Source: Lingula anatina (Eukaryota > Animalia > Brachiopoda). Taken from it: 64,000 bases of DNA. The notes below the pieces were generated by a model. That model saw only the letters and a program-made list of their open reading frames with translations. It was not told the origin of the DNA and did not search any database. Each line of letters opens with the position of its first letter. Positions within the stretch are counted from its first letter, which is position 1. The stretch lies in the NCBI GenBank assembly GCA_051362555.1, contig CM120648.1, forward strand, positions 16,302,587 to 16,366,586. The letters are read 5' to 3'. This document shows positions 8,978 to 52,727 of this stretch, piece after piece. The translations under genes and the position numbers were made by a program.

Positions 8978-10095
8978 ATGAATGCGACTGAGATGTCGGT
9001 CAACGAGAGCTTCTCATTTTCTGAGAAAGACGAAAAGGAGGAGGATATTCCTGACTTGGCTTTCATGAATCTGTTTTATTTTGCTTTTGGTGGCATTGGG
9101 ATTTCTCTCGTTTGTGTGGTTGGCCTTATTCTCAATTTTCTTTCAGTGGCTGTATTTTTACGTTTCGAGAAACGGAGCCCGACTGTTTTCCTGTTGATAT
9201 GCTTGGCAGTGGCCGATAACATCCATCTTTTAACAGCGTTCTTTAACTTCAGCGTCCCGGCCATGTACCCTTATACTGGGTGGTTCAAAAATTTCTTCTT
9301 TTTCCGGATGAAACACTTCCGGCTTCTGTATGGGTTGAAAATTTCCCTCTTCTTGATCCCACCCTGGTTAGTAGTGCTCGTAACGTTCGACCGTTATTTG
9401 CACCTTTGCTCCGAGAACGCCCTTCGAAGTGGTGCAACGGCAAGCATTAAAGTTTGGGCGTTAAGAGTTGGTGGCGTCGTGATTTTTGCCTTTCTCACCG
9501 ATGTTCCACGGTATTTCTTTGGGTCACTGCCTGAGCATCCTTGTCCCTTGAACACATCTTTGATTTTCTGTCTTGGTGCCCCTACTCCGGTTTCGGAATT
9601 CCACAAAATGTAAATCTTTTTTTCTTACGTTTTTGTGCAATTCTTGTTTCCTTTCATAATTGTCTTGACCCTGAATGTGAAGATGGCCCACCACATGAGG
9701 GTTCTTGCCAAGAATCCGGCCATGATTGCCATGAACAAGTTGGGCGTTCATCGTACTTTGATAAAAATGACCTTGGTCATCGCCCTTACCACTTTGGCCG
9801 CCTCTTTAACTGTGGCTCTGTCTAGTAGCTTTGGACTGTTTAGAAACCAACCCTTTGGTGAACTGCAAGGCATGGTGTTTGTATACCCTGTTATGGTTTT
9901 ATTCAATGTTCTAAGCTCATGCATTAATTTCTTCATTTACGGTCTCTATGGAAAACAGTTCAGGAGCACTTTGAAGTTGTTATGTTGCCACTGAAAGCCG
10001 AAAATAGGACAAGCTGCTCGCGCTGTGGCCAAACACAAAAGATATGCAGAGCCAGAAGGGCCAAAGCCTGGAGTGCCAGCTGTCTCCACCATTAG
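8978..10095 (+). pseudogene. GPCR copy 2, pseudogene
   Basis: Colinear with the intact copy. In-frame TAA at 9611-13 (Tyr in paralogs) before TM5, TGA at 9992-94 (CGA in paralogs), and a 3'-end deletion removing the normal stop. Confidence 0.85.
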
Positions 10096-10260
10096 TTAGG
10101 TAAATGACAAATATTTGTTTGCGTTTGACATTTCCCTCTTATTATTATTATTATTATTATTATTATTAGAGCTGCTGTTGCTGCTGTTGTTGTTGTTATT
10201 AAAAAATAAGCTGCATAACCCAACGTAGCAAATACTGTAATTGTAAAACTTTTGCCCAGT

Positions 10261-12007: not shown

Positions 12008-12279
12008 AAATAGAATTCAAGTATAAAGCCCATTGACATACAGGTTCAAGCCTGTTTTACCATTTTGACTTCATAAATTTTAAAAGCGTCAGCGGCAAGA
12101 TCTACATTTTTTTCACTGTGGGTAAAAAGTACACACACTGGACAAAAGAAGTGTCACCCCCTAACTCAGAGTAATAAAAGTAGGCAGACCTTGGGTACTT
12201 ATAATGCCTGGTCTACTTATAATGTGACTAATGAGTATAAAACCGCTACACCATGGAATTGTATTGTTGGTCTTGTACA

Positions 12280-12762
12280 AGTAGTAAGAGACGAGGTTTT
12301 CAACCTGCATTTTCGGAGGAGGTATATACTTTTAATGTAATTTTTTTAGTGAACCTTGAACCTTTTGAGGAGGAGTGTACTTTCAATGTAATTTCTTAGT
12401 GACCCCTGAAGCAGAAAGAAGGCTTTGCAAGCGAATTTAAATGACAATCATTTTAGTGTAAACGAGGGACGAGCAAATTCTAATGATGATTCAATAAAAC
12501 CTAGAAGGTTTTTTGTTAAATAATTGTATACCGAGCAAAGAAACGTAAAGGAGGGGTTTGTATGGTTATTTTAGCTATATTTAATTTCAGGAGTTATTGG
12601 AAAAAGTTTTTTATTATTTATTTTATTGAAAGGGCAATTTGAAACCCTTTTTTCTAGAAATGCGCAGAAGAATGCGTTTGGTGCGCCCGCACCCGTCTCG
12701 TGTTTGTGAATATACAGCTGAATGCGCTAAGGCTTGCATGAGCTAGAAACCTCTTGAAAATA
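12280..12762. repeat. Polinton left TIR (483 bp)
   Basis: Reverse complement of 26829-27311 with about 4 mismatches found by eye. Contains two ~50-bp tandem units (~12311-12410), each with GAGGAG. Confidence 0.95.
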
Positions 12763-12902
12763 TTTTTTGAGAAGTTTTATACATCCACAGAAGAACGCGT
12801 TTGGTGCCCGTGCGTCTGACCTTGTATGTAAAGCGCATTAGGTCATTGAAAAGAAAAAATAAATACCGCTGATCCTTGTATACATATTTTATTTAAAAGA
12901 CA

Positions 12903-15900
12903 CTAGATATCTAAGGGTTCAGTAGATACTCCATCTTCTAGCACTTTTCGTTTAGAATAGAAATAACTAAAGGCGTCTCTGTGTTGAAGATACGAATACA
13001 TAGTATTGTTAAATAAACGTATCCCCCTATTGACGCCACTACCGCTTTGTTTATTTAAAAGTACATCTAAATACTTACTTTTATCTATGTTATTACTATT
13101 TCTATTGACCCCTTTGCAGCTAAATTTCGGGTCGGTGTTTTCCCCGAAACAGTAGTACGTCTTACTACAGAGACCAACGATACCGTCACCGACCCACTCG
13201 GCTTTAAACAACCCGGGCGTGCGTTTGTCGTAGGCTTCGTGTTCTGGGGTATCAGTACGCGGAAACCACAGATGTTTCTCGGCTTCGTACTGCACTCTCA
13301 TGTGAGGTTTAACTACTTCTTCTAAGCTTTCCGCCGAGAAGGCGATGTACGCGGAATCCGTGTCCATTTCGCAATATTGGAAATCGGACGGATCCACGAA
13401 TTTCAGCATGAAGTCGTAGTAAAACTCTAACATGCGTAGCTTGGCGTACTGATACACCATCACGCCTATCTGAAGAGGAAGGTCGAATTTGATGATTTTT
13501 TTGTTAAGCTCGACCTCGTACGCGTTTTCGCAAATTTTATCTAAACGCCGAAAACGGTGACTGTTAACTTTTTGTGAGGCTTTTGCCTCGCCGCAATATT
13601 GCACATCTCGGTGCTTTTCTTTGTTGGTCACCGTTTTCCCGTAGCCCGAGTTGCCGATCAGCTTCATGGTGTCGGCAACGATAGCTTTGGTCTTGTCCCT
13701 GTCTCCCTCCCTGCGAGCGTCACTCACGGAGTTTCCGAAATGCTCGAAACAGGCTTTCGGGGTGTACTCGACTACCTGGTGGATGCGCGTCACGCGAAGA
13801 CCGTGGTTTAGGTACCATTTCAAAAGCGGGGTCGCCAAAACAATTTATTCGCCGAAAAAACTCCCGATCAACGAACGTCTCGGGACACTCATGATGCGGT
13901 TTTCTTCAGCGAAACGTTTCATGAAAGGACCGATGTCGTCGCGGGAAACGGTTGTGTTTTTAAAAATGGGCGGCATTTCGGAAAATTTTGGTCTAAGTTC
14001 GGGCGGGACTTCTACGTCGCACTCGACGAATCCAAACAGATTATCATTGCGAATTGCGTCTAGGATCTCGCCGAACGTGAGCCGATACTTGTGCTCTGTG
14101 GGAAGCGTGTATTGTGTCACGAAATGCTTCACTTCCCCGCTTTCGCGTTGAAGTTTTTTCCACTCACACTCCCACATTTCGACGAGATCGTAGCCGCATT
14201 CCCGAATGTACTGGCTATTAATTTCAGTTCCGATGCGTAAAGATTCCATAGTGACCTTTTTTGTGTCATTTATTTCTTTGTAGGTGCCATCTTTGTTTCG
14301 GTTTAAATGGCACCGATGACCGTGAAAATAACACCCGTGGTACTGATACACGGTCTGCGTCTCTCGACAAAACCCATCCACCGGTAGCTGACGGTACCCG
14401 ACGCGCTTTTCCGTACCGTTGAACTGATGTCGAATGCGAATATTGCTCGAATGAGCGACCCAGTCTAACCACAACGTGGCCTCACGGCCTCGCGGGTGAG
14501 AATATTCACGCGTATACTCGGACTCTTCGCGTCTGCGTATAAACGTACCCGTGGGCATGGGTTGCATCAAACACCACAGGTACAGGGCATTAGCGTCGTA
14601 CCCTACGATCTTTTTGCACAGCTTGGGAGCTTCGGATGTCGCCTTTCGAAGAAAGGTCTTATTCCTCTCGTGGTAGCGATGAAAGATGATGCTGGGACCG
14701 CCTACGATAGCGTTTTTTAGAAGGTAGTAAAGATCGCTGTGCTTATCGTCGAAGAGAGTGAAAAATGCGTCTCCTACGTTTTGAAACAGGTATTTCAATG
14801 TCAAACCTGGTACACTAATACCATCTTTAAACATATCAATACCCCTCTCAAGGTAGAAGGCGAACATTTTATCCACTGCTTCTAACATTGGCTCAACGTC
14901 TTTGTTGTTATACCACTCGAGGAAGTCGCGCATTGTTTGCATCTGGTTTTCATGCCAAACGCGTTGACACAATGCGTAATCCTCCTCAGTGATATTACTT
15001 TGTTTTAACTTCGAGTAAAACGCTTCGCGTGGAGGGAGACTTGCACACTCGAGTTTGTCCAAAGAGTCCATCCACTCGTAAGGGAAGAACCCCTTGGACT
15101 CGGCACACTCGAAAGCTTTTAAAAACTGACTATAGCTGCATCCGGGAGCCAAATAGTTGCAGATGTCTAAGATTTTTAGGCGTTCCGATTTTAACACCAT
15201 GAAATTGTTGTTGCGTTTTACGACAAATTTCAAGGTGTCCAACAACAACGGAAAAAAACAGCGTTTTCATGGCGTTAAGGTCGTAATGCCCACTGTTGAA
15301 ACCTAATACGGGTAATTCCATTAAATATTGACTAAATCTACGGCTAAGTTTTGATAAGTAATGTTTGTTTGTTAAGGTTTCTTCATCTTCTTCCATGACT
15401 TCACTTTCCTGTATCGTTTTTTGAATGTTTTGATCTATTTTTTCGTTAAGTTTTTCGAAGATCCAGGCAAACTTGTTGGTAAGAAGTTTTTCAGCCGCGC
15501 GGCTTATATTCTGCAATATTTCTAGGAACTGCTGCACGGCTAGCGCGGGATTGTCATCGGATACGATGCATTCCGGCTTCGTGTGACCAGGCACGTTGCT
15601 GCACACGCTGACGCTGAGGAAACGATGTTCGTGTTCTAAGCTCAGCTTTTCGCTGTGCTGCGGCTCCTCCGTACGGGGTAGCAGACACTCGATGTCGAAA
15701 GTCGCCCGATATCGATAGTATCTGTCTTCCTTGGGGACGAAAATGCCCTCATCTTCGAGGAGGTCGAATACGGTGGGCTGGGGAGCGTACGCCTTGCCGG
15801 GAAAACGGTGCTCTACGAGGACGTCGCAGGTCCGTTCGTGGCGCTGAAGGGACCATTTGCTCTTGAACATTTTGCTGCACCTCGAACAGCAAAACGAGCG

Positions 15901-17040
15901 GCAGTATTTGTCCACGTCGCTGATGTACGAAAAATGATTTTCGTGCACGTTCAGCGACATGGTGTCCTTGTGCTTGCCCGTTGAGCGACGAACGAGTTCT
16001 GCAAACACGTCCCCGTCTTCGTTTTGCTGCAGTTCGTACACGACGATGTTTACCTCGAAGAGGTCTTCCACCTTGTGCAGTCGATGGAGCGCCACGCCTT
16101 GGAAACCTTTGTGTTTGCATTTTCTTTTGCTTTCCCTGTACTTATCAAACAGTTTCTTCGTTGTTGTTTCCAGTCCTCTGACGGATGAACCTTTGTGCAA
16201 GGCGAGGCATCGAAAGAGGCAGAGATTGTCGCGGTACGTTTTTCCTCGGTTGTTTTTTTGCAGGGCAACGAGACCCTTGTTTTTAAGCACGAAGGAAGGC
16301 AGGTCGATCCCGCACCCGATGGGGTGACCCTTTAACTTCGTCACGTAAAACGTGGCGTTGGTGACCGTGTCTACCACCCACTTCGAATTTGGCCTCTCCT
16401 GTCGAGCACATTCTAAGACATCTTTGGCGGTAATGTTGTGGAAGAAACCGTCGAGATCCTGGCGGTGGCGGATCACAGCGGGCGCTTCTAAGAAGCAGTG
16501 GTTGTTGCTGCTGGGGTGGTAGTACCTCAACTGCCCGGTCTCGTTGTTTCTTAAGAAAAAACCGTACGACACGTTGATCTTGAACGCCGTGCGTTGATCT
16601 TCCAAGATCCGCTCCAGGTCGTCTCGAAGGGCATCGGGTTGAAGGGTGGTCAATCTAATATTGTACCAGTCTTGGAGTTTGTTACCCCTCGAGGATCTGG
16701 TCCGTATGCTGTTCCAATGGCTTCCGTACGCTTCGGCAACCGACGGATCGACGTCCGGGGGTAGAAGATTGTCGGGCATGACGACGCGGTCGGCGGCTCC
16801 CGACCCCCTTTGAATCCTGGGTCTTTTAACTGCCGAAGAGGCCTCTGGTTCTTCGCTCAAACTCGTCGAGGTCCCCGGGTGGAGGCGTAGATGCCTATTC
16901 ATGTTATCTCGACGAGCAAAAGTCTTCCCGCTTTCGGGGCATGCTACATGTTTTTCCTTCGTGTGGGTGAGCCGGTGTCGTTTAAGGTTATCGACGCGGT
17001 CGAAGGATGCGCCGCACACTTCGCATTTGTACTGTGCCAT
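12903..17040 (-). pseudogene. Protein-primed family B DNA polymerase (pPolB) with N-terminal C2H2 fingers and an inserted VSR-like nuclease; one frameshift and one in-frame stop
   Basis: Exo motifs FDIE, FNSGHYDL, YNNKDV; polymerase motifs YDANALY, KLIGNSGYGK, MDTDS, KxY. Three ORFs join via a +1 shift in the A7 run (15252-58; LFF-P-LLLDTLK if one base is removed) and an in-frame TAA at 13845-47 (GSFFGE*IVLATPLL). Confidence 0.93.
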
Positions 17041-17209
17041 GGTCGCTGTCGATCTGAAATGAAAATTAAATGCAGACTATAATAACGTGTTTTATATATG
17101 GTTGGTTGAAATAAGACGATTTGATTGGTTAATTCAAAGAGCACTATTTTGATTGGCTAACGAAAAGAGTATTAAAATAAAAGTTACAATTTTATCAGCC
17201 AGTTAAAGA
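17041..17209. promoter_or_regulatory. Putative bidirectional promoter between pPolB and the BIR-INT-capsid unit
   Basis: 169-bp divergent gap with two ATTGG (CCAAT) boxes at 17124 and 17152 in a 28-bp imperfect repeat, and TATATAAA on the minus strand near 17091-98. Confidence 0.5.
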
Positions 17210-17695
17210 ATGGATGACAGTAAAGTATTCACCGACTGTGTACCAGAAGACAAGCCCTTGTTTTTTCGAACACCCTATTGTAAAGAAGAAGATAGGATTC
17301 TCAGTTTTCTCAATTGGCCTGGTAAACTTCTCATCAACCCTATACCTTTAGCCATCAGCGGGTTTTACAGGGACCAAGACGCATCAAATACAGACGACGC
17401 GGTGCTTTGTTTTAACTGCCGCGTCAGTCTTAGAGACTGGGACCCGTTGAGAGATGCAGTGGACGTTGAACACGAACGCCACAGTCCGCACTGTACTATG
17501 AACACGGTCGAGAAGAGACTTGCGAATCCACTAAATGTTCCGCTGACGCCCGAAAAGCGACGCGAATTAGTGCAGCTATTTGTCGCCGACGAAAGAAAAC
17601 CTAAGTACACGCCCAGTACAGTGAAAACACTGTTAAACATAGGCTTTGACGAAGTGGACAAAAACCCCATGCAAAGGACATACAGACTCTTTTAA
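17210..17695 (+). CDS. Single-BIR-domain (IAP/survivin-like) protein carried by the Polinton
   Basis: EEDRILSFLNWP...LAISGFY...DDAVLCFNC...LRDWD...EHERHSPHC gives the BIR signature with all four Zn ligands (C-x2-C...H-x6-C). No RING domain. Confidence 0.85.
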   Translation: MDDSKVFTDCVPEDKPLFFRTPYCKEEDRILSFLNWPGKLLINPIPLAISGFYRDQDASNTDDAVLCFNCRVSLRDWDPLRDAVDVEHERHSPHCTMNTVEKRLANPLNVPLTPEKRRELVQLFVADERKPKYTPSTVKTLLNIGFDEVDKNPMQRTYRLF

Positions 17696-17706
17696 AGTTG
17701 AAAAAG

Positions 17707-18813
17707 ATGAAGAGACGACAAGCGGGTAAAAGTAAGGGACAGACAGACGATTACTTGAAGAAAATATATTACGATCCTTCCAATCCCGCTAGCTTTGGAA
17801 GCGCGTTGAAATTATATGAAGCGACGCGAAGAGATAAAAAGAAAATCGGACTAAAGCAGATTAAGGAGTTTTTGGCCAAGCAAGATACGTATACGCTACA
17901 CGCCAACGTCAGAAAAAGATTTCGCACCAATCGCGTCCTTGTTGGTCGTACAGATCAGCAATGGCAGGCGGATTTAGCCGACCTCGGTAAAATATCTAAG
18001 TACAACAAGGGTTATAAGTACCTTTTAACCGTGATTGATATATTTTCAAAATTTGCATGGGCTGTTGCTATCAAAACAAAAACTGCTGACAGTGTTTTAG
18101 AAGCGTTTAAAAAAATTTTATCCGAAGGTCGAAAACCGGCTATCCTTCAGTCAGATGCCGGAACAGAATTTACTAATAGGAAATTTCAAGCATACCTCAA
18201 GGAACAGGGAATATCGTTTTTTACAACAAAGTCGGAACGAAAAAGCTCTGTCGTGGAACGGCTGAACAGGACTTTAAAATCTAAATTTTTTAAATATTTC
18301 ACCGCCAACAGTACGCTGACGTACATACACGCACTCGACCAACTGCTGACGGGGTACAACGCGGCTAAACACCGGAGTATAGGCATGTCACCGACGGAGG
18401 CCTCAAAAGAAAAAAATTCGGACGCGGTATGGAATAAACTTTACGGGGGGAAAAAACTAGAAAAACCAAAGTTCAAATTTAACGTCGGAGACACCGTTCG
18501 ATTGAGCAAACATAGGTCCCCCTTTGCGAAAGGCTACGAGCAGGGTTGGACGCAGGAGTTGTTTACGATAACGCAACGTTTAAACAGGTCACCGCCGGTC
18601 TACAAGGTGGCAGACTACGACGGAGAGGAGATTGAGGGTGTCATGTATGGACCAGAAATGATTCGCGTCGTAAAAAAAGATGACGTGTATAGGGTTGAAA
18701 AAATTTTGAAATCGAGAGGGAAGGGTAAATCGAAAGAACATTTCGTGAAATGGCAGGGTTGGCCTTCCAAATTCAACAGTTGGGTCCCCGCATCCCGCGT
18801 CAAAACAGTATAA
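17707..18813 (+). CDS. Retroviral-like (rve) integrase with C-terminal chromodomain
   Basis: DDE core WQADLAD...IDIFSKFAW...QSDAGTEF...VERLNRTLK; C-terminal YRVEKILKSR...FVKWQGWPSKFNSWVP. First ATG at 17707. Confidence 0.95.
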   Translation: MKRRQAGKSKGQTDDYLKKIYYDPSNPASFGSALKLYEATRRDKKKIGLKQIKEFLAKQDTYTLHANVRKRFRTNRVLVGRTDQQWQADLADLGKISKYNKGYKYLLTVIDIFSKFAWAVAIKTKTADSVLEAFKKILSEGRKPAILQSDAGTEFTNRKFQAYLKEQGISFFTTKSERKSSVVERLNRTLKSKFFKYFTANSTLTYIHALDQLLTGYNAAKHRSIGMSPTEASKEKNSDAVWNKLYGGKKLEKPKFKFNVGDTVRLSKHRSPFAKGYEQGWTQELFTITQRLNRSPPVYKVADYDGEEIEGVMYGPEMIRVVKKDDVYRVEKILKSRGKGKSKEHFVKWQGWPSKFNSWVPASRVKTV

Positions 18814-18852
18814 AAAAGGATTTGCTGTGGCCTCCGAAGATTAGTCGGAACG

Positions 18853-19581
18853 ATGGCCTCGTCCTTTCACATCACACTCCCTTCCAACAGCAGTTTCAAC
18901 TTTTTTCCAGGCAACAGACCCGAAGCGTTTAGAACTAAGCTGTCCTCGTCGTTATATTTGCACGGACAATATGAAGTAGCTTTGACGGAAATACTTTATT
19001 GTAAAACGTGGAATAATGTGGAAAATAGTTCTCTGAATTATTTCGACGGTCAAAAACCTCAAACGCTTCGGTTGTCTAATGGGTATTACCCCCACGTGAA
19101 TGACCTATTGACAGCCATTCATAACGGGATGTCTGCTCAAGGCCAAATCAACATTCGGTTTGCATTCAACATTATTACGAAAAAGGTAACGGTTCATTTG
19201 AAAGCGGGAGCAAGCGTTCACTTTAGCGGGAGCATTGGAAATATGTTGGGTTTCGATAACGTTAATATATCCGCGGATACTACAGCTATTAAACCGGCGA
19301 ATACGACGGACGACTTCGATTCTCTCTATGTTTACACAGACATTATAAAACCACAACTAGTAGGTGACACATCGGCAAATTTGCTGCGCATAGTTCCGAT
19401 CAAGGGGGAATTCGGTGAAACAATCACGCATAGTTTTGATTCGCCTATTTACGTACCTCTAATCTCTAACGAACTGTCGACAATAAAAATCCATATAACC
19501 GACGACACGGGGAAATTTGTTCAGTTCCAAGGAAGAAAGACCGTCGTAACACTTCATTTTAGACGCAAAAATTTACTGTAA
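18853..19581 (+). CDS. Polinton minor capsid protein (penton, PX-like)
   Basis: N-terminal FHITLPSNSS..FPGN...YEVALTEI and C-terminal LYVYTDII..QLVGD...LLRIVP...LHFR motifs typical of this family; lies between integrase and MCP. Confidence 0.8.
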   Translation: MASSFHITLPSNSSFNFFPGNRPEAFRTKLSSSLYLHGQYEVALTEILYCKTWNNVENSSLNYFDGQKPQTLRLSNGYYPHVNDLLTAIHNGMSAQGQINIRFAFNIITKKVTVHLKAGASVHFSGSIGNMLGFDNVNISADTTAIKPANTTDDFDSLYVYTDIIKPQLVGDTSANLLRIVPIKGEFGETITHSFDSPIYVPLISNELSTIKIHITDDTGKFVQFQGRKTVVTLHFRRKNLL

Positions 19582-19583
19582 CG

Positions 19584-19886
19584 ATGGATCCAGTCTATAC
19601 AGCGCTCTTAAAGTACTATCAGAACCAAGCAGGCGAAGGAATAATTAATAAATTCCACGGAAGACAAAAAGGGGGCGGTGCTAGACACGCAGTAGTACTT
19701 CGCATAGGTGAAAAGCCTGCACGTCACGCGAAAGAAAAAACTCGAAAAAGAAAACTTTATGTAAGCAGTGATGTTATTACAAAAACAATGAACGGCATGA
19801 GTATAAAAAAGGACGTAAAAGCAAAAAAGGCCAGACGCGTTAAAAAACGCACAACCAAACACATCTCCGCGAAAACTAATTTTTAG
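19584..19886 (+). CDS. Small Lys/Arg-rich putative virion core protein
   Basis: 100 aa, very basic; YYQNQAGEG and RQKGGG resemble adenain-type cleavage sites. Packed between the capsid genes with 2-bp and 5-bp gaps. Confidence 0.65.
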   Translation: MDPVYTALLKYYQNQAGEGIINKFHGRQKGGGARHAVVLRIGEKPARHAKEKTRKRKLYVSSDVITKTMNGMSIKKDVKAKKARRVKKRTTKHISAKTNF

Positions 19887-19891
19887 TAACA

Positions 19892-21199
19892 ATGGAAAGC
19901 GTTGTTCGAACGGAACTGGATTTGTTCAGCAACATTCGCGATGCTTTTCAAGTTCAAATAGAACATTCATCGGTGGAAGAATTGAGACCGGTGAACAGCG
20001 TTACAGACACTTCCCCCGTAATAGAATTTCTTATCGTAGGAAACGCGGATGAATATATCGACCCAAATAATATCGTTCTTTATTTGGAAACGCAAGTAGT
20101 AAAAAATGATTTTAGTGACATAGATATCGGACAGGATACAGCTCCTGTCAACAATACGTTACATTCGCTATTTTCGAATGTGGAGGTTGAATTGAATGGG
20201 ACGGTCATAACGGAATCTAACAACACCTACGCTTACCGTGCGTACTTGGAAAACTTATTATTTCACGGGAGTTCTGCGAAAAAGTCATGGTTGACCAACG
20301 AAGCTTGGTATACGGATACACCCGGATTGTTCGATTTGACAGATGTCAGTGGAGATCCCGCTAATGAAGGCTTAAAACGAAGATATTCGCTGTTTCAACG
20401 TTCCCGAAAGTGTGAAATGATGGGGAAGATAAAATGTGATTTTTTTCAACAGCCGAAACTTTTATTAAACAATGTAGACATCAGGATAAAACTACGAAGA
20501 AGCGAACATAGTTTTTGTTTAATGTCCGGAACTACTTCCAAAGACGAAAAAATGCTGATAAAGAACATTTCTCTTTTTGCGAGGAGGGTTAAAGTTTCGT
20601 CCCGCCTCAAGGCTGCCCACGAAACTATGTTGATGAATAACGTGGCTTGTTACCCCATCATGAGAAGAGAAGTCAAAATAATCAATATACCCAATAATGT
20701 TCGAAGTGCTTTTCTGGATAACATATACATGTCTAAAATACCGCGTAGAATTTTTATGGGTATGGTGACGGACGCTAGCCTTTCGGGACAGTACGATTTA
20801 AATCCCTTCAACTTTAAACATCAGAATCTTCGGTCTTTGCGTTTAACCGTGGCCGGAGAACAAATTCCGCTCAAACCCTACAATTTAGATTTTGATACGA
20901 ATGAGGGATTAAATTATATAAGACCTTTTAACGACCTCGTTTCGACAATTGAACCCGAAGAAGCCGATAGAGATGTATCGTTATCGAGGGAAGCCTTTAA
21001 CGCGGGAAACACGATTTTCGGGTTCGATTTAAGCCCCGATCAGTCGCATCAGCCTTACTCGTCTCCTATGCGTCAGGGGTCGCTAGGGGTATCTCTGGAG
21101 TTTACAAAACCTATCAATAACAGCGTACTCGTTGTGTTTGCCGAGTTTGACTCTGTGATCAAAATTGACAATAGACGTTCCGTTTATATGGAGCCGTGA
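19892..21199 (+). CDS. Polinton major capsid protein (double jelly-roll, PY-like)
   Basis: Intact 435 aa; ELDLFS, IEFLI...EYID, PVNNTLHSLFS, YAYRAYLE, NPFNF and FDLSPD motifs characteristic of Maverick MCPs. Confidence 0.9.
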   Translation: MESVVRTELDLFSNIRDAFQVQIEHSSVEELRPVNSVTDTSPVIEFLIVGNADEYIDPNNIVLYLETQVVKNDFSDIDIGQDTAPVNNTLHSLFSNVEVELNGTVITESNNTYAYRAYLENLLFHGSSAKKSWLTNEAWYTDTPGLFDLTDVSGDPANEGLKRRYSLFQRSRKCEMMGKIKCDFFQQPKLLLNNVDIRIKLRRSEHSFCLMSGTTSKDEKMLIKNISLFARRVKVSSRLKAAHETMLMNNVACYPIMRREVKIINIPNNVRSAFLDNIYMSKIPRRIFMGMVTDASLSGQYDLNPFNFKHQNLRSLRLTVAGEQIPLKPYNLDFDTNEGLNYIRPFNDLVSTIEPEEADRDVSLSREAFNAGNTIFGFDLSPDQSHQPYSSPMRQGSLGVSLEFTKPINNSVLVVFAEFDSVIKIDNRRSVYMEP

Positions 21200-21201
21200 A
21201 C

Positions 21202-21696
21202 ATGAATAACCGTCAACTTGACTGTATTATGAAATCGGATCCTATTTCGTGTAAACATTTCATAGGCGTGTTCTCATCGGATACTCTACCACAATATATC
21301 AGTACATATCCCGCAGGACTGATAGTCAACACCGCTAAATATCACGAAATAGGAGAACATTGGGTCAGCATTTATGTTTCAAATGACGGATCAGCAGAAT
21401 TTTTTTATTCCTATGGACGTCACCCCAGCTACTACGACAATAATTTTACTCGATTCCTGAAGAACAATTCGACAAGAGGGTGGTCTTATAATAGTAAAGT
21501 GTTACAAGATCGTTTGAGTGTTGTTTGTGGTTACTACACAATTTACTTTCTGTCGCAACGCTTTCGAGGGAAGACCATGCGAAAGATAAGTGCGAACTTT
21601 TCAAACGATACCAATTTTAACGATTATGTAGTATACGATTTTGTAAATAGAAATTTTATTGTGTCACCTAGATATTGTAAATCACAACTCAAATAA
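21202..21696 (+). CDS. Adenain-like cysteine protease (maturation protease)
   Basis: GVFSSD, IVNT, GEHWV (His), LQ...VCGYY (Gln, Cys). The usual FFDSYG acidic residue reads FFYSYG here. Confidence 0.88.
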   Translation: MNNRQLDCIMKSDPISCKHFIGVFSSDTLPQYISTYPAGLIVNTAKYHEIGEHWVSIYVSNDGSAEFFYSYGRHPSYYDNNFTRFLKNNSTRGWSYNSKVLQDRLSVVCGYYTIYFLSQRFRGKTMRKISANFSNDTNFNDYVVYDFVNRNFIVSPRYCKSQLK

Positions 21697-21726
21697 AACA
21701 GTGTAACAACACATTTATTAAATAAA
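21692..21726. terminator. Convergent polyadenylation signals between the two Polinton gene blocks
   Basis: AATAAA overlapping the protease stop (21692-97) and at 21721-26 on +; TTTATT at 21714-19 (AATAAA on the minus strand) just after the PZ-like stop. Confidence 0.5.
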
Positions 21727-21753
21727 TTTTCAAAATACACGGCTGTCTTTGTT

Positions 21754-22419
21754 TCAATATATATTAAACGACGTAAATTTATTCCCCATACCCGTTTGGG
21801 GTTTCTTTTTATTTTTACTGGTGTGTGATGGTAGAGATAAAAACTCCTCTCGCCGCAAAGTATTGGATATAAGAGTCGAAGGAAGATTTATACGTTTTAG
21901 TCCCTTTAAAAAAATCGACCATCCGGCGGGAGTAAACTTTCGTTTTCTCGAAACGTACAATTCACTTATTAAATCAATTATGTTAGTGTTCTGTATAGTC
22001 TCTCCGTCGTATATCAGCGACCCTCGATCATCGTAAGATAAAAGGGTGGGGTGTTTGGCGATGAGTCTCAACATGTTATTCGCCTTGTTACGCATCCGCG
22101 CGGGAATCGATTCTAATATTTGCGTATCGATAAAACGCTTTGATGGTTCCGCGTTCTCATTCGCAGACGTAGGCGTATTTTCTATAGTTACAGAGATAGG
22201 TTGTTTTTTTCGGGCAACCTGCATATATTCATTTTGTAGTTCGTTGTATAACTTTATGCGTTTATCAAACGGTAAGTCTTCTCTTTGCATTACAGAACTC
22301 AGTTCATTCTGCTTTCGTAAAACTTCATCCTGTAATGGTGAATAATCCGCGTTTGATTTCCTTCGCAAAGCGTTTAACTCTGTTTCATCTATGATAACCA
22401 TCTTTTTAAACGCTGACAT
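21754..22419 (-). CDS. Conserved Polinton protein (PZ-like), function unknown
   Basis: KKMVII N-terminus; YDDRGSLIYDGETIQNTNIIDLI and PAGWSIFL...NLP..LISN motifs; C-terminal QTGMG. PZ name assigned from memory of the family. Confidence 0.65.
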   Translation of the reverse strand: MSAFKKMVIIDETELNALRRKSNADYSPLQDEVLRKQNELSSVMQREDLPFDKRIKLYNELQNEYMQVARKKQPISVTIENTPTSANENAEPSKRFIDTQILESIPARMRNKANNMLRLIAKHPTLLSYDDRGSLIYDGETIQNTNIIDLISELYVSRKRKFTPAGWSIFLKGLKRINLPSTLISNTLRREEFLSLPSHTSKNKKKPQTGMGNKFTSFNIY

Positions 22420-22726
22420 GTCTCAACACTGGTTGCACAATTGCCTTGACTAATGAAGGGTTTTTCGCTAATATTTTCTTCTTGATTTTCAGCGATCTCT
22501 GTTTCTCCACTAGTTTAAGCACGAGACTTTTGAGATGACTTAACTTATTTCTCTCTTGTGCAGTCAATCTGTACTCAGTGTTGCGCAAAAGATTACTAGC
22601 TAAATTGCACAGGTTTCGAATGAGGGTATTTGGCGAATTCTCGATCACGCTTTTTGTCAATCTTCTGTCGGCTATGGATAGAAAATTAAGATGTGGCATG
22701 AACGTGTTTGTGGATTCGGACTTCAT
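22406..22726 (-). CDS. Conserved small basic Polinton protein (PW-like)
   Basis: LIRNLCNLASNLL...LT...KL...SLKIKKKIL pattern; lies between the ATPase and the PZ-like gene and overlaps the latter by 14 bp. Confidence 0.6.
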   Translation of the reverse strand: MKSESTNTFMPHLNFLSIADRRLTKSVIENSPNTLIRNLCNLASNLLRNTEYRLTAQERNKLSHLKSLVLKLVEKQRSLKIKKKILAKNPSLVKAIVQPVLRHVSV

Positions 22727-22762
22727 TGTAAAGTGACGCAGCGACACGAAATCACCTTCTTT

Positions 22763-23410
22763 TTATACGGGCAGGTAGACGTAATGCGTTTCTCCGGGAA
22801 AAATATTTGTTCTTAGTCGCACTTCTTCGGGGGTTGTTTGACGGAAATCTATAAAAAGGTAGCTGTAGGGCTTGGACGTGGCGTCTTTGTAAATATCTAT
22901 GAACTTTTTTGAATTTTGTAAAGAGACCTGATGAGACAACGCCCTGATCTGCGATTGGTCGCGAGGAGATTTCATAAGGACTAAATATTGCATGTTAAGC
23001 GATATTGTCCTGGCATGCTTTTCTTTGGGAAATAACGAATGGGTAATAAGAATTATCGACACGTTGTTATGATGAGAATTTCGTATGAAAATGTGTTTAA
23101 TCTTAGGGTTCTCGAAACTTTCGCTAAATAAGTCGTCTAAAATAAGAAGCGAATACTTTTTCGCGTCATATATTTCTTCTAATTGTTCGTCACTAGGTAT
23201 TCCCTCTATAAAAGTTATATGTTTTGGGACCTCTTTTTCAATTTGATCGTAAGCCTCTTGCCACACAGCGTAAGCGAAAATAATATTATCAAAAGCATGG
23301 TCTGTCATTAAATCTGAGTATCTTAAGAAATTTTGAAGAAAAGTAGTCTTGCCGGCTCCGCTAGGTCCGTTGATGACCAAACTTAATGGAAGTTTCATGC
23401 TCAAATCCAT
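22763..23410 (-). CDS. A32/FtsK-HerA family DNA packaging ATPase
   Basis: Walker A GPSGAGKT, Walker B LLILDD, SHHNNVSIILITH, PYSYLFID. First ATG at 23410. Confidence 0.92.
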   Translation of the reverse strand: MDLSMKLPLSLVINGPSGAGKTTFLQNFLRYSDLMTDHAFDNIIFAYAVWQEAYDQIEKEVPKHITFIEGIPSDEQLEEIYDAKKYSLLILDDLFSESFENPKIKHIFIRNSHHNNVSIILITHSLFPKEKHARTISLNMQYLVLMKSPRDQSQIRALSHQVSLQNSKKFIDIYKDATSKPYSYLFIDFRQTTPEEVRLRTNIFPGETHYVYLPV

Positions 23411-23665
23411 GTTTCTCAACTGAATGTCTCTACAAGAGTGAAACTTAATATACCCCACATTTTTTTTTTATCATTTTTTTAAAACAACTACTTACCTGCT
23501 AGCTCGTTTGTAAGTGGTGGCTCTCGGTTTCGACCTCTTCTAAGTGTGCGACGCTATCGGAAAGACAGCTCTGCCGTAATTCTGAGTGATCCGCGTTGCC
23601 TGCCTGTGTCCTTTGAATCACGGGATATTTATACGCAGCGTAATACAATGAGTCAGCATTTTTTA

Positions 23666-24252
23666 ATGGAATTTTCTATTGAAATTCGGAAGATAATAGG
23701 AATATTCCAGATCTCTTTTCTTAGTATTATGTTCTATTGAAATTCGGAAGATAATAGGAATATTCCAGATCTCTTTTCTTAGTATTATGTTATGGAATTT
23801 CCTATTGAAATTCGGAAGATAATAGGAATATTCCAGATCTCTTTTCTTAGTATTATGTTCTATTGAAATTAGGAAGATAATAGGAATATTCCAGATCTCT
23901 TTTCTTAGTATCATGTTATGGAATTTCCTATTGAAATTCGGAAGATAAAAGGAATATCCCAGATCTCTTTTCTTAGTATTGTGTTACGGAATTTTCTATT
24001 GAAATTCGGAAGATAAAAGGAATATTCCAGATATCTTTTTCTTAGTATTATGTTATGGACTGTTTTTAATTGTGTAATAAAACGTGTCTATCGAAATTCT
24101 GATTAAGGAGCTTTTATACAATAACCAAAAACCAGTTAAACCCGGCTAAAAAGATAATAGAGATGTCTCAGATCTGTGTCTCAACTCTTTTCTGAGTATC
24201 ATGTTATGGAATGTTCTATTGAAATTCGGAAGATAATAGGAATATTCCAGAT
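23666..24252. repeat. Tandem array of 58/68-bp units upstream of the ATPase gene
   Basis: CTATTGAAATTCGGAAGATAATAGGAATATTCCAGATCTCTTTTCTTAGTATTATGTT starts at 23676, 23734, 23802, 23860, 23928 and 23996, plus degenerate/partial copies to ~24252. Confidence 0.9.
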
Positions 24253-24666
24253 TCGTGAATCAACAATATATTTTATAATATGTGTGTTTAAATACGAATG
24301 GCCTTTTTAGACGAGCGTAGACTGCATCCAGTTGCAATGTGATGTTACTGCGTTCGACGCCGTTGAGGCATTAAGTCTCACTGTGTTTGGTTCTCACTAA
24401 GCGCATTGTGACTGCGCTGGTCATCTTGGTTGACTTCACCTGTCAGGCAACAAACTAAACTGCATTATATTCCAAAGTTACACGTCGAGCAGAACCACAT
24501 CTATTCATGTCTACTGTTGCTGACAGTGTTTATAGTCGCTAAAATATAAGGAGACTTTACAACAAACGAGGTCTCGCTGATCCCAAGTCTATCTCGTTCA
24601 GTAAATATTCTGCACACTGACAGCCGTGTTAAAGGATATCATTTCCCCTAGGTAAATACAATTTTT

Positions 24667-25772
24667 GTTTGAATTGTGAACGTTGTCCAGGCATGCCCCG
24701 TTTTACTCGAATAATGCAAAAAGCTGGTCAGCAAACAAATACAACCAGTGCCATTCAAAGTGTCACCATTGTGGTGTATAGAAGCGTGTAATGATCTTCC
24801 ACTTTAGTTGCTATGCGAAGTAGAAAGCACAGTACATTTTCGTTCTTCGTGTCAGTCTACTCTACAAAGGTCTCCGCATTCTTTATTCATATAAATATCA
24901 ATTACCAACATTTTATTTATTATTATATTTTCTGTAATGAATTTTACTTCTACTTTGATTTTATTTTCTATTCTACTACAACTAAATTAAACTTATAGGT
25001 CATAGTAAAATGATTTAGATGACGAATGGCTAAGGTCACGGTAGTGATCAAAAGCTTTGTGAGGTACAGTACTTCGTTTGAAAAATAAATAAGATTCGTA
25101 AGAAATAATAAATTGTCCAATTCAAAATTCGCGTTTTGTAAAAATGCAAAATACCAAAATTCACTTTTTGTATGAATTCGTATTTCGAATTTTATATTCC
25201 TAAACATTTCAATTTTCATGTTTGAATTGTGAACGTTGTCCAGGCATGCCCCGTTTTACTCGAATAATGCAAAAAGCTGGTCAGCAAACAAATACAACCA
25301 GTGCCATTCAAAGTGTCACCATTGTGGTGTATAGAAGCGTGTAATGATCTTCCACTTTAGTTGCTACGCGAAGTAGAAAGCACAGTACATTTTCGTTCTT
25401 CGTGTCAGTCTACTCTACAAAGGTCTCCGCATTCTTTATTCATATAAATATCAATTACCAACATTTTATTTATTATTATATTTTCTGTAATGAATTTTAC
25501 TTCTACTTTGATTTTATTTTCTATTCTACTACAACTAAATTAAACTTATAGGTCATAGTAAAATGATTTAGATGACGAATGGCTAAGGTCACGGTAGTGA
25601 TCAAAAGCTTTGTGAGGTACAGTACTTCGTTTGAAAAATAAATAAGATTCGTAAGAAATAATAAATTGTCCAATTCAAAATTCGCGTTTTGTAAAAATGC
25701 AAAATACCAAAATTCACTTTTTGTATGAATTCGTATTTCGAATTTTATATTCCTAAACATCTCAATTTTCAT
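24667..25772. repeat. Near-perfect 553-bp tandem duplication inside the Polinton
   Basis: 24667-25219 is repeated at 25220-25772 (identical 83-aa ORF calls offset by 553); two substitutions seen by eye. Confidence 0.9.
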
Positions 25773-25924
25773 AATTCATAAGATTTTACAATTCTAAAAT
25801 GCGAAATATATACGATTTTTTATGAGAATTCATAAGAGTGATTGTGCAGAGAAAGACACATGCATAGCGCAGAGCAGAATTTACAGCTCAAATTTTTGAA
25901 CGATATATTCTAAGTCCAGGTATA

Positions 25925-26822
25925 TGAAATCAATTTATTGCATGGCTGGCACAGACCGCTTAGGTCTAATGGACGTGTATAGTATAACAAATACTATTCA
26001 TATGTAGCCAGTACTAGCATATGAAATCAATTAATTGCATGGCTGGCATGGCGCAGACCGCTTGGATGCACTGCGCATACGTACAATAATATTCATATAT
26101 TACCGGTATGTAAAGTGCAGATATCTAGGCGTCTATGATTTTTATATTAAAAAACTTTTCACAGTTCCAGTATATTCTAAAACTCCTTCTGTGTCTTAAT
26201 GCAATGTTTCCCAAAATATTACAGAACTTTTCTTTGCGAACGTATCACAGGTCAGCTCAGAGACATCAGTAATAACAAAATCAATTTACTGCATGGCCGG
26301 CGCAGACCGCTTGGGTGCACTGCGCATACGTACAATGATATTCATATATTACCGGTATGTAAAGTGCAGATATCTAGGCGTCTATGATTTTTATATTAAA
26401 AAAACTTTTCACAGTTCCAGTACATTTAAAACTCTCTCTGTGTGTCTTATTGCAATGTTTCCCAACATATTCTAGAGCTTTTCTTTGTGGGTATAACACG
26501 GGTCAGCTCAGAGACATCAGTGATAGCAAAATCAATTTACCGCATGGCTGGCGCAGACCGCATGGGTTCACTGCGCATACAATAATACTTTTGATATATT
26601 GCCGGTATGTGAGGTGCAGAAACCTAGGTGTCTATGATTTTTATATTAAAAAAAACTTTTCAAAGTTCCAGTATATTCTAAAACTCCCTCTGTGTCTTAA
26701 TTATTGCAATGATTCCCAAAAATATTCTAGAACTTTCCTTTGTAAGCATATCACGGGTCAGCTAGAAGACATCAGAAATGACAAAATCAATTTTCTGCAT
26801 GGTTGGCCCAGACCGCTTAGAT
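25925..26822. repeat. ~250-bp subterminal tandem repeats next to the right TIR
   Basis: AAATCAATTT..GCATGG..GGCGCAGACCGC motif at ~25927, 26024, 26278, 26529 and 26784; three diverged full units. Confidence 0.85.
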
Positions 26823-26828
26823 GCATTG

Positions 26829-27311
26829 TATTTTCAAGAGGTTTCTAGCTCATGCAAGCCTTAACGCATTCAGCTGTATATTCACAAACACGAGATGGGT
26901 GAGGGCGCACCAAACGCATTCTTCTGCGCATTTCTAGAAAAAAGGGTTTCAAATTGCCCTTTCAATAAAATAAATAATAAAAAACTTTTTCCAATAACTC
27001 CTGAAATTAAATATAGCTAAAATAACCATACAAACCCCTCCTTTACGTTTCTTTGCTCGCTATACAATTATTTAACAAAAAACCTTCTAGGTTTTATTGA
27101 ATCATCATTAGAATTTGCTCGTCCCTCGTTTACACTAAAATGATTGTCATTTAAATTCGCTTGCAAAGCCTTCTTTCTGCTTCAGGGGTCACTAAGAAAT
27201 TACATTGAAAGTACACTCCTCCTCAAAAGGTTCAAGGTTCACTAAAAAAATTACATTAAAAGTATATACCTCCTCCGAAAATGCAGGTTGAAAACCTCGT
27301 CTCTTACTACT
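26829..27311. repeat. Polinton right TIR (483 bp)
   Basis: Reverse complement of 12280-12762; ends ...CTCTTACTACT followed by TGTACA. Confidence 0.95.
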
Positions 27312-27351
27312 TGTACATGTACAGCAAATGTTATTACTGTCTTCCTCCAAT

Positions 27352-33511: not shown

Positions 33512-34621
33512 ATGGATGCGACTGAGATGTCGGTCAACAGTAGCTCATATCTTCAAAAAGAAGAAAATGAGGAGGACTTTCCTGATTTGGATTTCATCAA
33601 TCTGTTTTATTTTGCTGCTGGTGGCATTGCGGTTTCTGTGGTTTGTGTGGTCGGGCTTATTCTCAATTTCCTTTCAGTGGTTGTATTTTCACGTTTCAAG
33701 AAACGGAGCCCGACTGTTTTCCTGTTGATATGCTTGGCAGTGGCCGATAACACCCATCTTTTAATGACGCTCTTTGAATTCAGTTTCCCGGCCATGTACC
33801 CCTATACTTCTTCTTCAGGATGAAACACTACCGGCTTCTGTATGGGTTGAAAATTTCCATCTTCATGATTCCACCCTGGTTAATAGTGCTCGTAACGTTC
33901 GACCGTTATCTACACCTTTGTTCTGAGAACGCCCTTCGAAGTGGAGCAACGGCAAGCATTAAAGTTTGGGCGTTAAGAGTTGGTGGCGTCGTGATTTTTG
34001 CCTTTCTCACCGATGTTCCAAGGTATTTCTTTGGTTCTATGCCTGAGCGATATTGTCCCTTGAACACGACGTCTCCGATTTTCTGTCTTGGCGCCCCGAT
34101 TCCGGTTTCAGAATTCAGTTTCAAACACATTTTTTTCTTACGTTTTTGTGCAGTTCTTGGTTCCTTTCATAATTGTCTTGATCCTGAATGTGAAGATGGC
34201 TCACCACATGAGGGTACTTGCCAAGAATCCGACCATGATTGCTATGCGCAAGTTGGGTGTCCATCGTACTTTGATCAAGATGACCTTGGTTATCGCCCTT
34301 ACCACTTTGGCCGTCTCCTTAACTATGACTCTGTCTAGTCTCTGTGGAATTTTTGGGAACCACCGCTTTGGTGAACTGCGAGACATGGTGTTTGTATTCC
34401 CAGTTATAGTTTTGTTTAGTGTACTAAGCTCATGCATTAATTTCTTCATTTACGGTCTCTTTGGAAAAGAGTTCAGGACAACTTTGAAGTCGTTATGTTG
34501 CCATCAAAAGCTGGAAATAGAAGGACAAGCTGCTCACGCTGTGGCAGAACGCAACAGAAATGCAGAGCCAGAAGGGCCATACCCAGGATTGTCAGCTACC
34601 TCCACCATAGTTTCTGCTTGA
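33512..34621 (+). pseudogene. GPCR copy 3, pseudogene
   Basis: Frameshifting deletion near 33808 removes GWFKN; a second frameshift lies near 34117-34127. Otherwise colinear with the intact copy. Confidence 0.85.
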
Positions 34622-34686
34622 GCAGGAAAGACGAGACCTTCATTACAAGGTAAATGATCAATATTTGTTTGCGTTTGACATTTTTC

Positions 34687-34720
<34 letters not shown>

Positions 34721-35571
34721 GTTGTTGTTGTTGTTGTTAAATAGTTGAAGCTAAGCAGACATATTCTGAGGTATTCTAAACCCCTACACTCATTCAAGAC
34801 CGCAGATGAATAATGTTCAACAGTGGAGAAATGTGCCATGAATTAGTCAGAGTCTTATCTTTGGGTATCGTGTTTTAATATCATTTGTGTCCCAGGTAGA
34901 GAGTCCTTATTAACCGTCAAGCCATTCAATCTGTAAGAAGGAACAGTGCAGATAAGTAGCTTTTTAAACGTTAAATTGATACGTACAGTGTTGGGTAAGA
35001 TTTTAGATAAACACATTAGGAGGTTAACTGTCTCATTTTTTCTCATTTTTTATCATCCCCTAACATATCAATAACACGATCTTATAACCGCAAATTCCCT
35101 GTTTTTGTGGTTAAAATTGGTGAAATCTTTGAGGATTTTTAAAACTTTCACCTTCTTATTTTCCTAGATATGATTTATTCTGTATCACTTGTTGTTTTAT
35201 TTCTAAACAGAATCCTTATTGGGACATGCGGTAAACGCAATCAAAATACATAACACAGCGAATGACAAGTGAGTCTTGAATTTGACTGGTCGATTTTCAA
35301 TCCCCCACCACATTACAAATTAATAGTATCGACTCTGAAGAAACTTGAGATTGTGACCGGTTGTGATTGTGATATGTCATAAACACAGGGTGCCGCCATG
35401 ATGGAAGTCTTGCGTCAGTGTCAAAATGGTAGGATTGCGTACGAACAGGTCTGGAAAATATTGGATTTGTTTAATAAGCACAGAATTGTTTGTCAAGACA
35501 AATAACCGTGCACGCACGGCGATTTGGAGCTTGCGTATACCATCTGACATGGCAATTTATGTAACTGACAG

Positions 35572-40277: not shown

Positions 40278-41649
40278 GCATGAGAGACGGGTCTCCAGTA
40301 GCAAGGTAGATTATCATTAGTTAATATGTGTGTTTGCCTTTTAAAAATGATCCTCTCATTGTTATTACAATTTTATTGCACAATTTGCAGAGCCCAGCCT
40401 AGCAAACAATGATTGTAATATTGTGTTCAGTATTGAACACATTTTGGGAATAGAACGTAGTGGTTAGGGTCACAGCATAGTGTCTGCTCTGCCGTCTTAA
40501 CTACATAAAGTAAGCGTCAAGGGCATGAACTATTTTTTTTTATTTTGGTAAAATGTACATGCTCCTTTGGTAGTGTTTGTTTTGAAACTTTTAAGCTTAT
40601 TCGTATTTCGACTTAACTTCATTTCGTGTATTTTGGCGACGTTGCCAAATTGTTTTAAAAAGAATTCACGGGATGGCTTTGCTTATTAATAAGGCAGATT
40701 CCTTTAAGATTCAGTATGATCGTATTATCTTTTTTTTTTTTCCAAATTATCCGTTTCTTGGCGGCATTCGTCTCACAAGCAAACCACCAAACCTTATTTT
40801 TGTTTTATTCTAATTTTGGGATTTTTATGTCTCAAAATCAAATCAAAATTATATTTGACCTTTTTATACGTTACTGGAAGTTGTTTCTTGTAATAATGTG
40901 ACGTTTCATTATGTTAGTCTCTCAAATTATCGATGTACATCTCACTAACCAGACGCATTTGTCTTGCTAAGTCTTATAAGAAAGATATTTTCTCCTGCAG
41001 TTACTATACACATATCTTTAGGACACTACAAGTGCGTGCTTTTCAAGTATAAGTAATGATGGTTGGTCAGAGTTCCACATGAAATTATAGAGCGTTCAAC
41101 CGATGGAACTTAACTGAGATATTCTGAGATGTTCTAAATCACTAGGTCATTTTAATCAATAAGAAGTAACCGTGTTAGTGCAGATAAGTAGGTTTCTAAA
41201 CTTTAAACCAAGGATTAGGTTTTAGTTAAATCAATTAGGGAGTTGGCTGTAACACAGCTTTTCCAACGTTTTTCCACCCCATAAGATATCAAGGATGAAA
41301 TGCTATAACGGCATGTCCTTGTTTTTTGAGGTGACTATTGTTGAAATGTTAAAAAAATTAAACAATATTGACATCTTACTTGTGTTGATATTGAATAATC
41401 TGTTTTATTAAATTTTTTAATTTAATATCGAAATGTGGGCCAGCTCAACGACATTGGATATGATGTGTATGTTGTTAAGTTAATGTCTTACACCTTCACT
41501 CATTGCAGGTAATAAGTAAAGAGGAATTACATGAGTAAAAGAATAGGGAGTTTTTTATTGTAAATTTCATTTCTTTAAGAGTCAACAAGTGTAGGAATTG
41601 CTTTCATGGTAGGAAAAGACATGTCTAAGTTCCATGTAGTTCGATATGA

Positions 41650-52501: not shown

Positions 52502-52544
52502 CAAGATAAATGACCGATATTTGTTTCCGTTTGACATTTTCCTC

Positions 52545-52597
<53 letters not shown>

Positions 52598-52727
52598 GTT
52601 GTTGTTGTTGTTGTTGTTTTTATTGTTATTATTAAATAGGCTGCAGAACGCAACGTACAAAATACTGTAAATTTTAAAAATATTTTATTTAATATTAATA
52701 TTTAATATTTTATTTATTTATTTATAT

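Follow-up and report, generated by a model that had tools for sequence, protein, structure and literature searches.

The stretch of DNA analyzed here (the window) comprises 64,000 nucleotides of the brachiopod Lingula anatina (assembly GCA_051362555.1, contig CM120648.1) and contains a Polinton/Maverick element of 15.0 kb (12280-27311; coordinates are those of the window, on its plus strand unless marked minus). The subject of this report is the element's protein-primed polymerase, pPolB, which begins with two zinc fingers predicted to bind a word repeated just inside the element's own ends. Polinton/Maverick elements are defined, in the available text of PMC8097293, by terminal inverted repeats (TIRs) with (AGT)2 ends and by a 6-bp target duplication. 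Both are present: the left TIR (12280-12762, 483 bp) begins AGTAGT and has 4 mismatches with the right TIR (26829-27311, minus), and the target-site duplication TGTACA flanks them (12274-12279 and 27312-27317). The element also carries pPolB and an rve integrase (PF03175, PF00665), the former as a weak, partial match and in a broken gene, as well as a packaging ATPase (PF04665, E 4e-9) and a maturation protease (PF00770, weak, E 0.004).

The pPolB gene lies on the minus strand and is directed at the left TIR. Its first open reading frame (ORF; 15130-17040, minus) opens with MAQYKC and passes directly into the first of two tandem C2H2 fingers (16963-17031, minus; helix positions -1 to +6, RVDNLKR), which is joined by the linker H-TKEKH-VAC to the second (16879-16947, minus; RRDNMNR). 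The array has the finger fold, TGEKP-like spacing, and base-contacting residues at helix positions -1, 2, 3, and 6, and Pfam zf-C2H2 matches residues 4-26 with an E value of 2.8e-12. Finger 2 of this copy has lost its second cysteine ligand, CPES replacing the expected CxxC. The two fingers, their helices, the TKEKH linker, and the CPES defect had all been reported in a preliminary description of the locus and are confirmed in the sequence.

The domain order of the polyprotein is C2H2 fingers, terminal protein (TP)-like domain, OTU, and polymerase. Residues 1-400 were modeled with AlphaFold (60-row alignment, mean pLDDT 86, pTM 0.53). The two fingers occupy residues 3-56 of the model; beyond a linker of low confidence come an alpha/beta domain (99-240) and then a second domain (245-378). 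The linker (16747-16875, minus), of about 43 residues, contains KRPR and has pLDDT below 50 at residues 58-79. The second domain (15907-16308, minus) has the fold and the catalytic Cys and His of a vOTU-like protease, with DNLCLF and NHFSYI motifs intact; it matches OTUD1 structurally (Z 9.1, root-mean-square deviation 3.4 over 117 residues), and its DxLC motif recurs in 115 of 120 relatives. The alpha/beta domain (16321-16746, minus) is called TP-like from the model and a motif. Its structural matches are weak (Z about 5), to the little-finger domains of Y-family polymerases, and stand level with unrelated rows. A Foldseek search of the PDB found no match at E at or below 0.001. Ser219, in RPNSKW, lies between the last helix and the last strand of this domain, and Ser occupies the position in 117 of 118 motif matches. 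It is a candidate priming residue, in a modeled topology that fits the PRD1-like TP fold. In their available text, Krupovic et al. (bioRxiv 10.1101/2024.03.18.585575) have the linking Ser or Tyr precede the last strand of TP and suggest that TP and OTU are separated by cleavage, and the leader layout is, as modeled, their TP-vOTU layout. An internal C2HC-type finger follows the OTU domain (15826-15891, minus; helix SKWSLQR); it is not matched to the TIR and stands at the same place in 7 of 12 relatives scanned.

What would the N-terminal fingers bind? An aspartate at helix position 2 prefers a following G or T. The preliminary description had both helices reading GAG, and this fits the table of PMC5260015, which lists RSDNLVR and RRDNLNR as GAG modules in the part available. 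The sites predicted in the left TIR are GAGGAGG (12316-12322), +37 from the AGTAGT end at 12280, and GAGGAGGAGT (12367-12376), which holds sites 2 and 3 (+88/+91). The right TIR mirrors them at 27269-27275 and 27215-27224, so that the words are found 37 and 88 bp inside both TIRs, where they had been described. They had been described also as the products of one duplication, and indeed the two copies belong to a duplication with a 51-bp period (31 nt, 84% identity), GAGGAGGAGT lying in its second unit. Within TIR positions 11-200, the 3 predicted sites give a z of 5.7 against dinucleotide shuffles. The window as a whole contains 19 GAGGAG(G/T) words, compared with 6.2 in shuffles, 6 of the 19 within the first 100 bp of the two TIRs. 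Because the word is enriched across the whole window, the single locus is weak evidence. Another finger protein was considered as the reader of the sites and rejected: over six frames of 12280-27311, C2H2-like matches occur only in pPolB.

Relatives for comparison came from a metagenome scan (80 loci) and a genome scan (12 loci), 92 loci together, referred to below by L numbers; scans of viral contigs gave no relative. Twelve of the 92 have both an N-terminal finger pair and a credible AGTAGT end outside genes (none of the 12 genome-contig loci has both fingers and an end), and these with the window element make a test set of 13. Loci left out were L009, L076, and L043, whose ends are doubtful (they were added only in a run with n=15), L062 and L064, which have candidate ends and no fingers, and others lacking an end, fingers, or both. 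For L001/L002/L003 and L032/L034, boundaries of homology support the ends; elsewhere the ends are placed by motif and position only. Each finger pair was scored on both strands of each end at positions 11-200, as a z relative to dinucleotide shuffles, and the pairings were permuted. Two codes were used, a generic C2H2 code with one mismatch allowed and the module table of PMC5260015 with exact matches. As a side observation, L081-L088 are Polinton polymerase contigs inside bacterial metagenome-assembled genome records, probably owing to host contamination.

In this test, which the preliminary description had proposed, finger specificity co-varies with TIR motifs when true pairings are set against shuffled ones: either code gives p=3e-5 for the 13 elements. 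The generic code still gives p=2.5e-4 without the GAGGAG families and L003, and the table code gives p=1.5e-4 without the window element and L003 and p=0.002 without the window element, L014, and L003. With any one element left out (12 elements), p is at most 7e-4; with three doubtful ends added (n=15), it is 1.2e-4; and with z capped at 3, it is 6e-4. Host flanks are null (p=0.38, 9 elements), as are inner-TIR positions 201-390 (p=0.14), and the true code ranks first among 24 relabellings (37.4 vs 20.9 for the next). Six of the 13 elements match their own end exactly (z of 5.7 for the window element, 13.3 for L014, 8.4 for L001, 6.7 for L003, 3.7 for L002, and 3.6 for L034), one does so with one mismatch, one is marginal, and five do not match. 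Under the exact code, own-end z is about 0 for L004 and five others, L004 scoring only when one mismatch is allowed. The preliminary description had singled out, as the telling case against it, elements that keep the same helices without GAGGAG. None of the test set is of that kind: the only other end belonging to two GAG-type fingers, that of L014, carries 8 GAGGAGG words at positions 33-125.

The ends can also be read without a code, by taking from the first 250 bp of each the word that recurs most often. For the window element this word is GAGGAG. In L014 (SKRALIR, RYDNLQR, RDDNLRR) it is GAGGAGG, eight times, mostly as GAGGAGGTG; the three fingers predict GAG GAG GTN, and the end holds an array of the GAGGAGGTG type. 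L001 and L003 (RKDSLNR, LLQDVKR) have GCTGTG five and six times, L002 (RVDNLKQ, RRSDLKR) has GCGCAGG twice, L004 (RLDNLKT, RKTNLNR) has GATTAGG five times, and L034 (TKSNLNR, RRHHLNL) has GGATCG three times, on the other strand. In L048 (RKFNFQR plus an irregular finger) the word is CTAGAG, seven times. L008, L010, L028, L032, and L049 have no clear repeated word in their ends. Position is also conserved in 6 of the 13: the first site lies at +37 in the window element, +36 in L001, L002, and L003, and +33 in L014 and L034. This distance is kept whether pPolB points toward the end (window element), points away from it (L001-L003, L014), or lies on the far side (L034), and in five of these six elements the G-rich strand is the 5'-terminal strand. 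As to L048, its end (L048:14762, minus) presents the seven words as CTAGAG/CTCTAG, and the code reads only finger 1 (GAG), the second finger being irregular.

L001 and L002 constitute a natural experiment. Between the TP exon and a point beyond the end of the polymerase, 4429 bp in all, the two are 98.3% identical; upstream they diverge. Their helices differ, and on a shared end backbone GCTGTG is swapped in register for GCGCAG at the first sites, with the old GCTGTGG persisting further inside. The replacement agrees with what the two sets of helices are predicted to read. The shared body may have been collapsed during assembly; the end and the fingers are both contained in 0.9-1.7 kb of sequence specific to each family, and L003, from a separate assembly, shows the same finger-end pairing as L001. 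In both L001 (at 2765) and L002 (at 5000), the finger exon ends at a donor-like site (CAG/GTAGG), and an AT-rich, stop-containing stretch precedes the TP exon. Since stops separate the two exons, a finger-TP fusion in L001 and L002 would need splicing, unlike the case of the window element, where fingers and TP share one ORF.

Comparison of the sequences makes it very likely that the fingers bind the end word specifically, a point common to three of the readings considered here, in which the fingers serve the origin, act after priming, or regulate transcription. Our preference is for the first: the finger leader is probably, if by no means certainly, a fused, family-specific module that loads the polymerase onto its own replication origins. 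The preliminary description had offered origin recognition and autoregulation side by side. Origin recognition is favored, because the pPolB promoter gap (17040-17210) contains no GAGGAG and because the left TIR faces the 3' end of this element's pPolB gene; autoregulation at the promoter of this pPolB is rejected, there being no site there. According to the origin model, the finger array would bind a family-specific word of 6-9 bp from about 35 bp inside each end. C2H2 fingers bind DNA in antiparallel geometry, and given this geometry and the identity of the G-rich strand with the 5'-terminal strand, the TP side of the array would face the end. The flexible linker would tether the TP-polymerase and so raise its occupancy at the AGTAGT end for protein-primed initiation, and OTU cleavage would leave finger-TP on the 5' end. 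Fingers and end motif would change or be swapped together, and co-resident families would each use their own replicase. We give roughly even chances to the broader proposition that recodable modules for origin recognition, each consisting of a TP-fused C2H2 array with its word at about +35, are a feature of a large clade of animal Polintons, and that swaps of the finger-word cassette on a nearly unchanged polymerase create orthogonal "incompatibility groups" within one host.

A number of observations count against loading at the origin. The fingers of L008, L010, L028, L032, and L048 do not match their ends, and L049 is marginal (z 1.8-2.3). In L004, GAGTAG is predicted and GATTAG is present, one mismatch away, and at finger position 6 of L002 the prediction is either unspecified or off by one. 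The sites of L034 are on the opposite strand, contrary to a fixed geometry. Fingers taken in the wrong order also gave a signal when all pairs were used (p=0.009), because GAG-GAG pairs are order-symmetric; with asymmetric pairs only, the wrong order gives p=0.35 vs 0.008 for the right one. The 37 bp between site and end work out at about 125 Å, which a 43-residue linker would span only when almost fully extended. Fingers are missing from 23 of 84 long-leader representatives (described below). Physical linkage joins the fingers to the end in L001-L004 and L014, where the end also lies upstream of pPolB, a position that would suit a promoter role. A TIR variant that omits both GAGGAG sites (window 12309-12396) occurs at low depth in 4 of 4 DNA runs of this host; it may come from a defunct copy or from a family whose fingers differ. 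Both TIRs were seen in none of the 11 longest metagenome loci. Finally, n is small and the test was not blind, ends and helices having been seen before either code was fixed.

Perhaps, then, the fingers bind the end word and act only after priming, to pair or protect the ends or to pass them to the integrase or the packaging ATPase. The same co-variation speaks for this possibility. So does the proposal of Krupovic et al., in its available part, that TP is cut off by OTU and stays on the DNA, which would leave the fingers at the ends, and so do the 5-8 sites reaching +120 to +190 in L001, L003, and L014, more than one priming event should need. However, the fingers are fused to the priming domain rather than to the integrase or the ATPase, and in 6 elements the first site is set almost the same number of base pairs from the end, so a role after priming seems unlikely. 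Somewhat less likely again is a self-encoded transcription factor acting on a promoter or enhancer in the TIR, for autoregulation or a lytic/latent switch, perhaps as a finger-only splice product. The donor-like site that ends the finger exon of L001 and L002, with in-frame stops beyond it, would suit such a product, the end lies 0.9-2.4 kb upstream of pPolB in L001-L004 and L014, and ends carry the words TGACGTCA and CGGAAGT. We take CGGAAGT to be an ETS-like and TGACGTCA an ATF/CREB-like host-factor word. Buck et al., in the text available, describe "Ziftr" zinc-finger regulator genes in some adintoviruses. Nevertheless, in the window element fingers and TP form one ORF, its promoter gap is without GAGGAG, and its left TIR lies beyond the 3' end of pPolB; moreover, site position tracks the end and not the start codon. 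For the record, words like those of host factors are located at L010:7-300 and, measured from candidate ends, at about +141 in L014, about +103 in L004, and about +45 and +158 in L064; L010, whose fingers are unmatched to its end, has five GAAGCGGAA repeats, and the fingerless L064 has two TGACGTCA.

The match might also be incidental, the fingers binding DNA non-specifically or binding protein, the end repeats being sites for host factors, and linkage mimicking co-variation. After all, 5 of the 13 elements are unmatched, Arg-rich fingers frequently yield G-rich predictions, the sample is small and was not scored blind, and GAGGAG(G/T) is enriched throughout the window. But linkage accounts for co-inheritance, not for five different words that fit the code. 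Nor does an incidental match sit well with the first rank of the true code among 24, with null results from the flank, inner-TIR, and wrong-order controls, or with the in-register replacement between L001 and L002. We consider it quite improbable, the least probable of these explanations.

How general are finger leaders? Among close homologs (a redundant set), TP is preceded by one finger or more in 91 of 120 and by two or more in 78. Clustering at 50% left 150 representatives, 84 of them with at least 60 residues before TP; one or more fingers are present in 61 of the 84, and two or more in 40. Because the remaining 23 have none, fingers are not required for Polinton replication generally; the leader is a trait of a clade. 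Named relatives come from lancelets and sea anemones, and the names of database entries show that annotation already detects pPolB fingers. The recognition residues are diverse: 143 fingers hold 102 distinct -1/3/6 triples. In one close family with 26 distinct two-finger variants, Arg at -1 is invariant, and few columns vary more than helix positions 2 and 3 (entropy 1.3-2.3 bits vs a TP mean of 0.35). In this host, among 40 of 58 rows, the differences at finger-1 positions -1 and 6 and at finger-2 positions 2 and 3 are synonymous (derived by hand), and some sister copies carry residue changes at finger-1 positions 1-3. The window element falls within no starred clade of a quick tree and is 54% identical to L014 over the polymerase segment; the two may share GAGGAG by descent or by convergence. 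About 6% of each of two RNA runs gave 0 reads on the finger region, which is uninformative on expression.

The TP (D1)-vOTU (D2)-polymerase order found here is that of the Polinton/adintovirus pPolB of Krupovic et al. Like known Polintons, as they appear in the available parts of Krupovic et al. and Starrett et al. (PMC8502044), the element has a Ser beside Pro in the loop leading into the last strand of TP, intact Cys/His motifs, AGTAGT ends, a 6-bp duplication, an integrase, a protease, and an ATPase. Unlike the pPolB published there, it has a C2H2 array preceding TP. So far as their main texts were available, Krupovic et al. mention neither zinc nor C2H2, Starrett et al. and Barreat & Katzourakis do not mention fingers, and none of the three describes how Polinton ends are recognized. 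Published accounts base the priming and protease domains on modeled structures. Nor is a match between pPolB fingers and TIRs reported in the accessible literature, including Krupovic 2024, Jeong 2023, PMC3671162, Starrett 2021, Buck 2024, and Barreat 2021, a scope that excludes supplements, Repbase reports, and subscription journals.

There are partial precedents. The layout resembles an adenovirus origin in that a protein-primed end has, some 35-50 bp inward, an auxiliary site for sequence-specific binding. Adenovirus initiation is stimulated by NFI and Oct-1, a role named in the titles of works cited by PMC5717082. It differs in that the reader here would be element-encoded, fused to TP, and family-specific. 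In the HAdV-37 origin, the available text of PMC2397415 has the core (8-17) bound by pTP-polymerase and an Oct-1 site at 40-48. Another parallel is offered by the yeast cytoplasmic linear elements (pGKL type), which encode TRF1, a terminal recognition factor in the TP-pPolB initiation complex (PMC8472843, in part). TRF1 is likewise a self-encoded means of recognizing a terminal region, but it is a separate small protein and not a C2H2 array, and the part of PMC8472843 available describes no recoding from family to family. The fingers may be likened as well to other fast-changing arrays whose specificity comes from helix positions -1, 2, 3, and 6. C2H2 arrays co-vary with DNA words in PRDM9, in the KRAB-ZFPs directed against transposons, and in the fingers of R2 retrotransposons. 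Those arrays read host or target DNA, whereas here reader and word are within the same replicon. The proposed recognition of origins by the fingers of the element's own polymerase gives a candidate answer to how the replicase finds Polinton ends, with named finger/site pairs that include the near-isogenic L001 and L002. Should it prove correct, it would account for the coexistence in a single genome of many Polinton families that do not replicate one another, it would supply a self-encoded counterpart of the host factors borrowed by adenovirus, and it would offer a natural library of C2H2-site pairs, readable from genomes, for probing the recognition code.

The copy in the window is itself disabled. 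Its pPolB is split into three pieces, first by a frameshift near 15,250 and then by a stop in frame near 13,845. The second piece (13845-15200, minus, following the frameshift) matches DNA_pol_B_2 (E 6e-9), and the third (12903-13667, minus, following the stop) is recognized as the C-terminal part of the polymerase by homology to relatives. A full-length polymerase cannot be produced from this particular copy. Sister copies, read from contigs of four DNA runs aligned to 12200-17300, are many; none has the in-frame stop or the finger-2 defect, and most lack the frameshift. At the finger-2 position, all aligned depth in 4 of 4 runs differs from the window (10, 5, 6, and 6 contigs). The frameshift, the stop, and the finger-2 defect are confined, or almost confined, to this copy, and because sister copies are mostly without its defects, the element is best seen as a recently inserted, damaged member of a multi-copy family. 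Piece 2 also contains (14150-14350) a HGCxFHGHxC...WECEW stretch with no Pfam match, which we take, from the likeness of the motif, to resemble a VSR-type nuclease insertion. An insertion of that type is described in mollusc Polinton polymerases (Jeong et al., available text).

A BIR-domain (IAP-like) accessory gene (17210-17695; Pfam, E 5e-12) stands head to head with pPolB across a 170-bp gap and is followed by the integrase (17707-18813; Pfam), which has a C-terminal chromodomain. Three ORFs without a Pfam match occupy 18853-21199: one at 18853-19581, a small one, and one at 19892-21199. From their position, we presume the first to be the minor and the last the major capsid protein, and their size and place are as expected. 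An adenain-like protease (21202-21696) matches Peptidase_C5 under the curated cut-off (E 0.004). On the minus strand (21754-23410) lie two unnamed ORFs and the A32-like packaging ATPase (22763-23410), none with a C2H2 finger. The right part is free of genes and has three tandem-repeat arrays (23645-24252, 24666-25518, and 25920-26830, the series adjoining the right TIR), with 58/68-bp units, a 553-bp duplication, and units of about 250 bp. Outside the element, the host DNA holds five copies of another dispersed repeat family with ORFs, at 46-600, 9000-10200, 33550-34750, 39190-40320, and 51390-52600.

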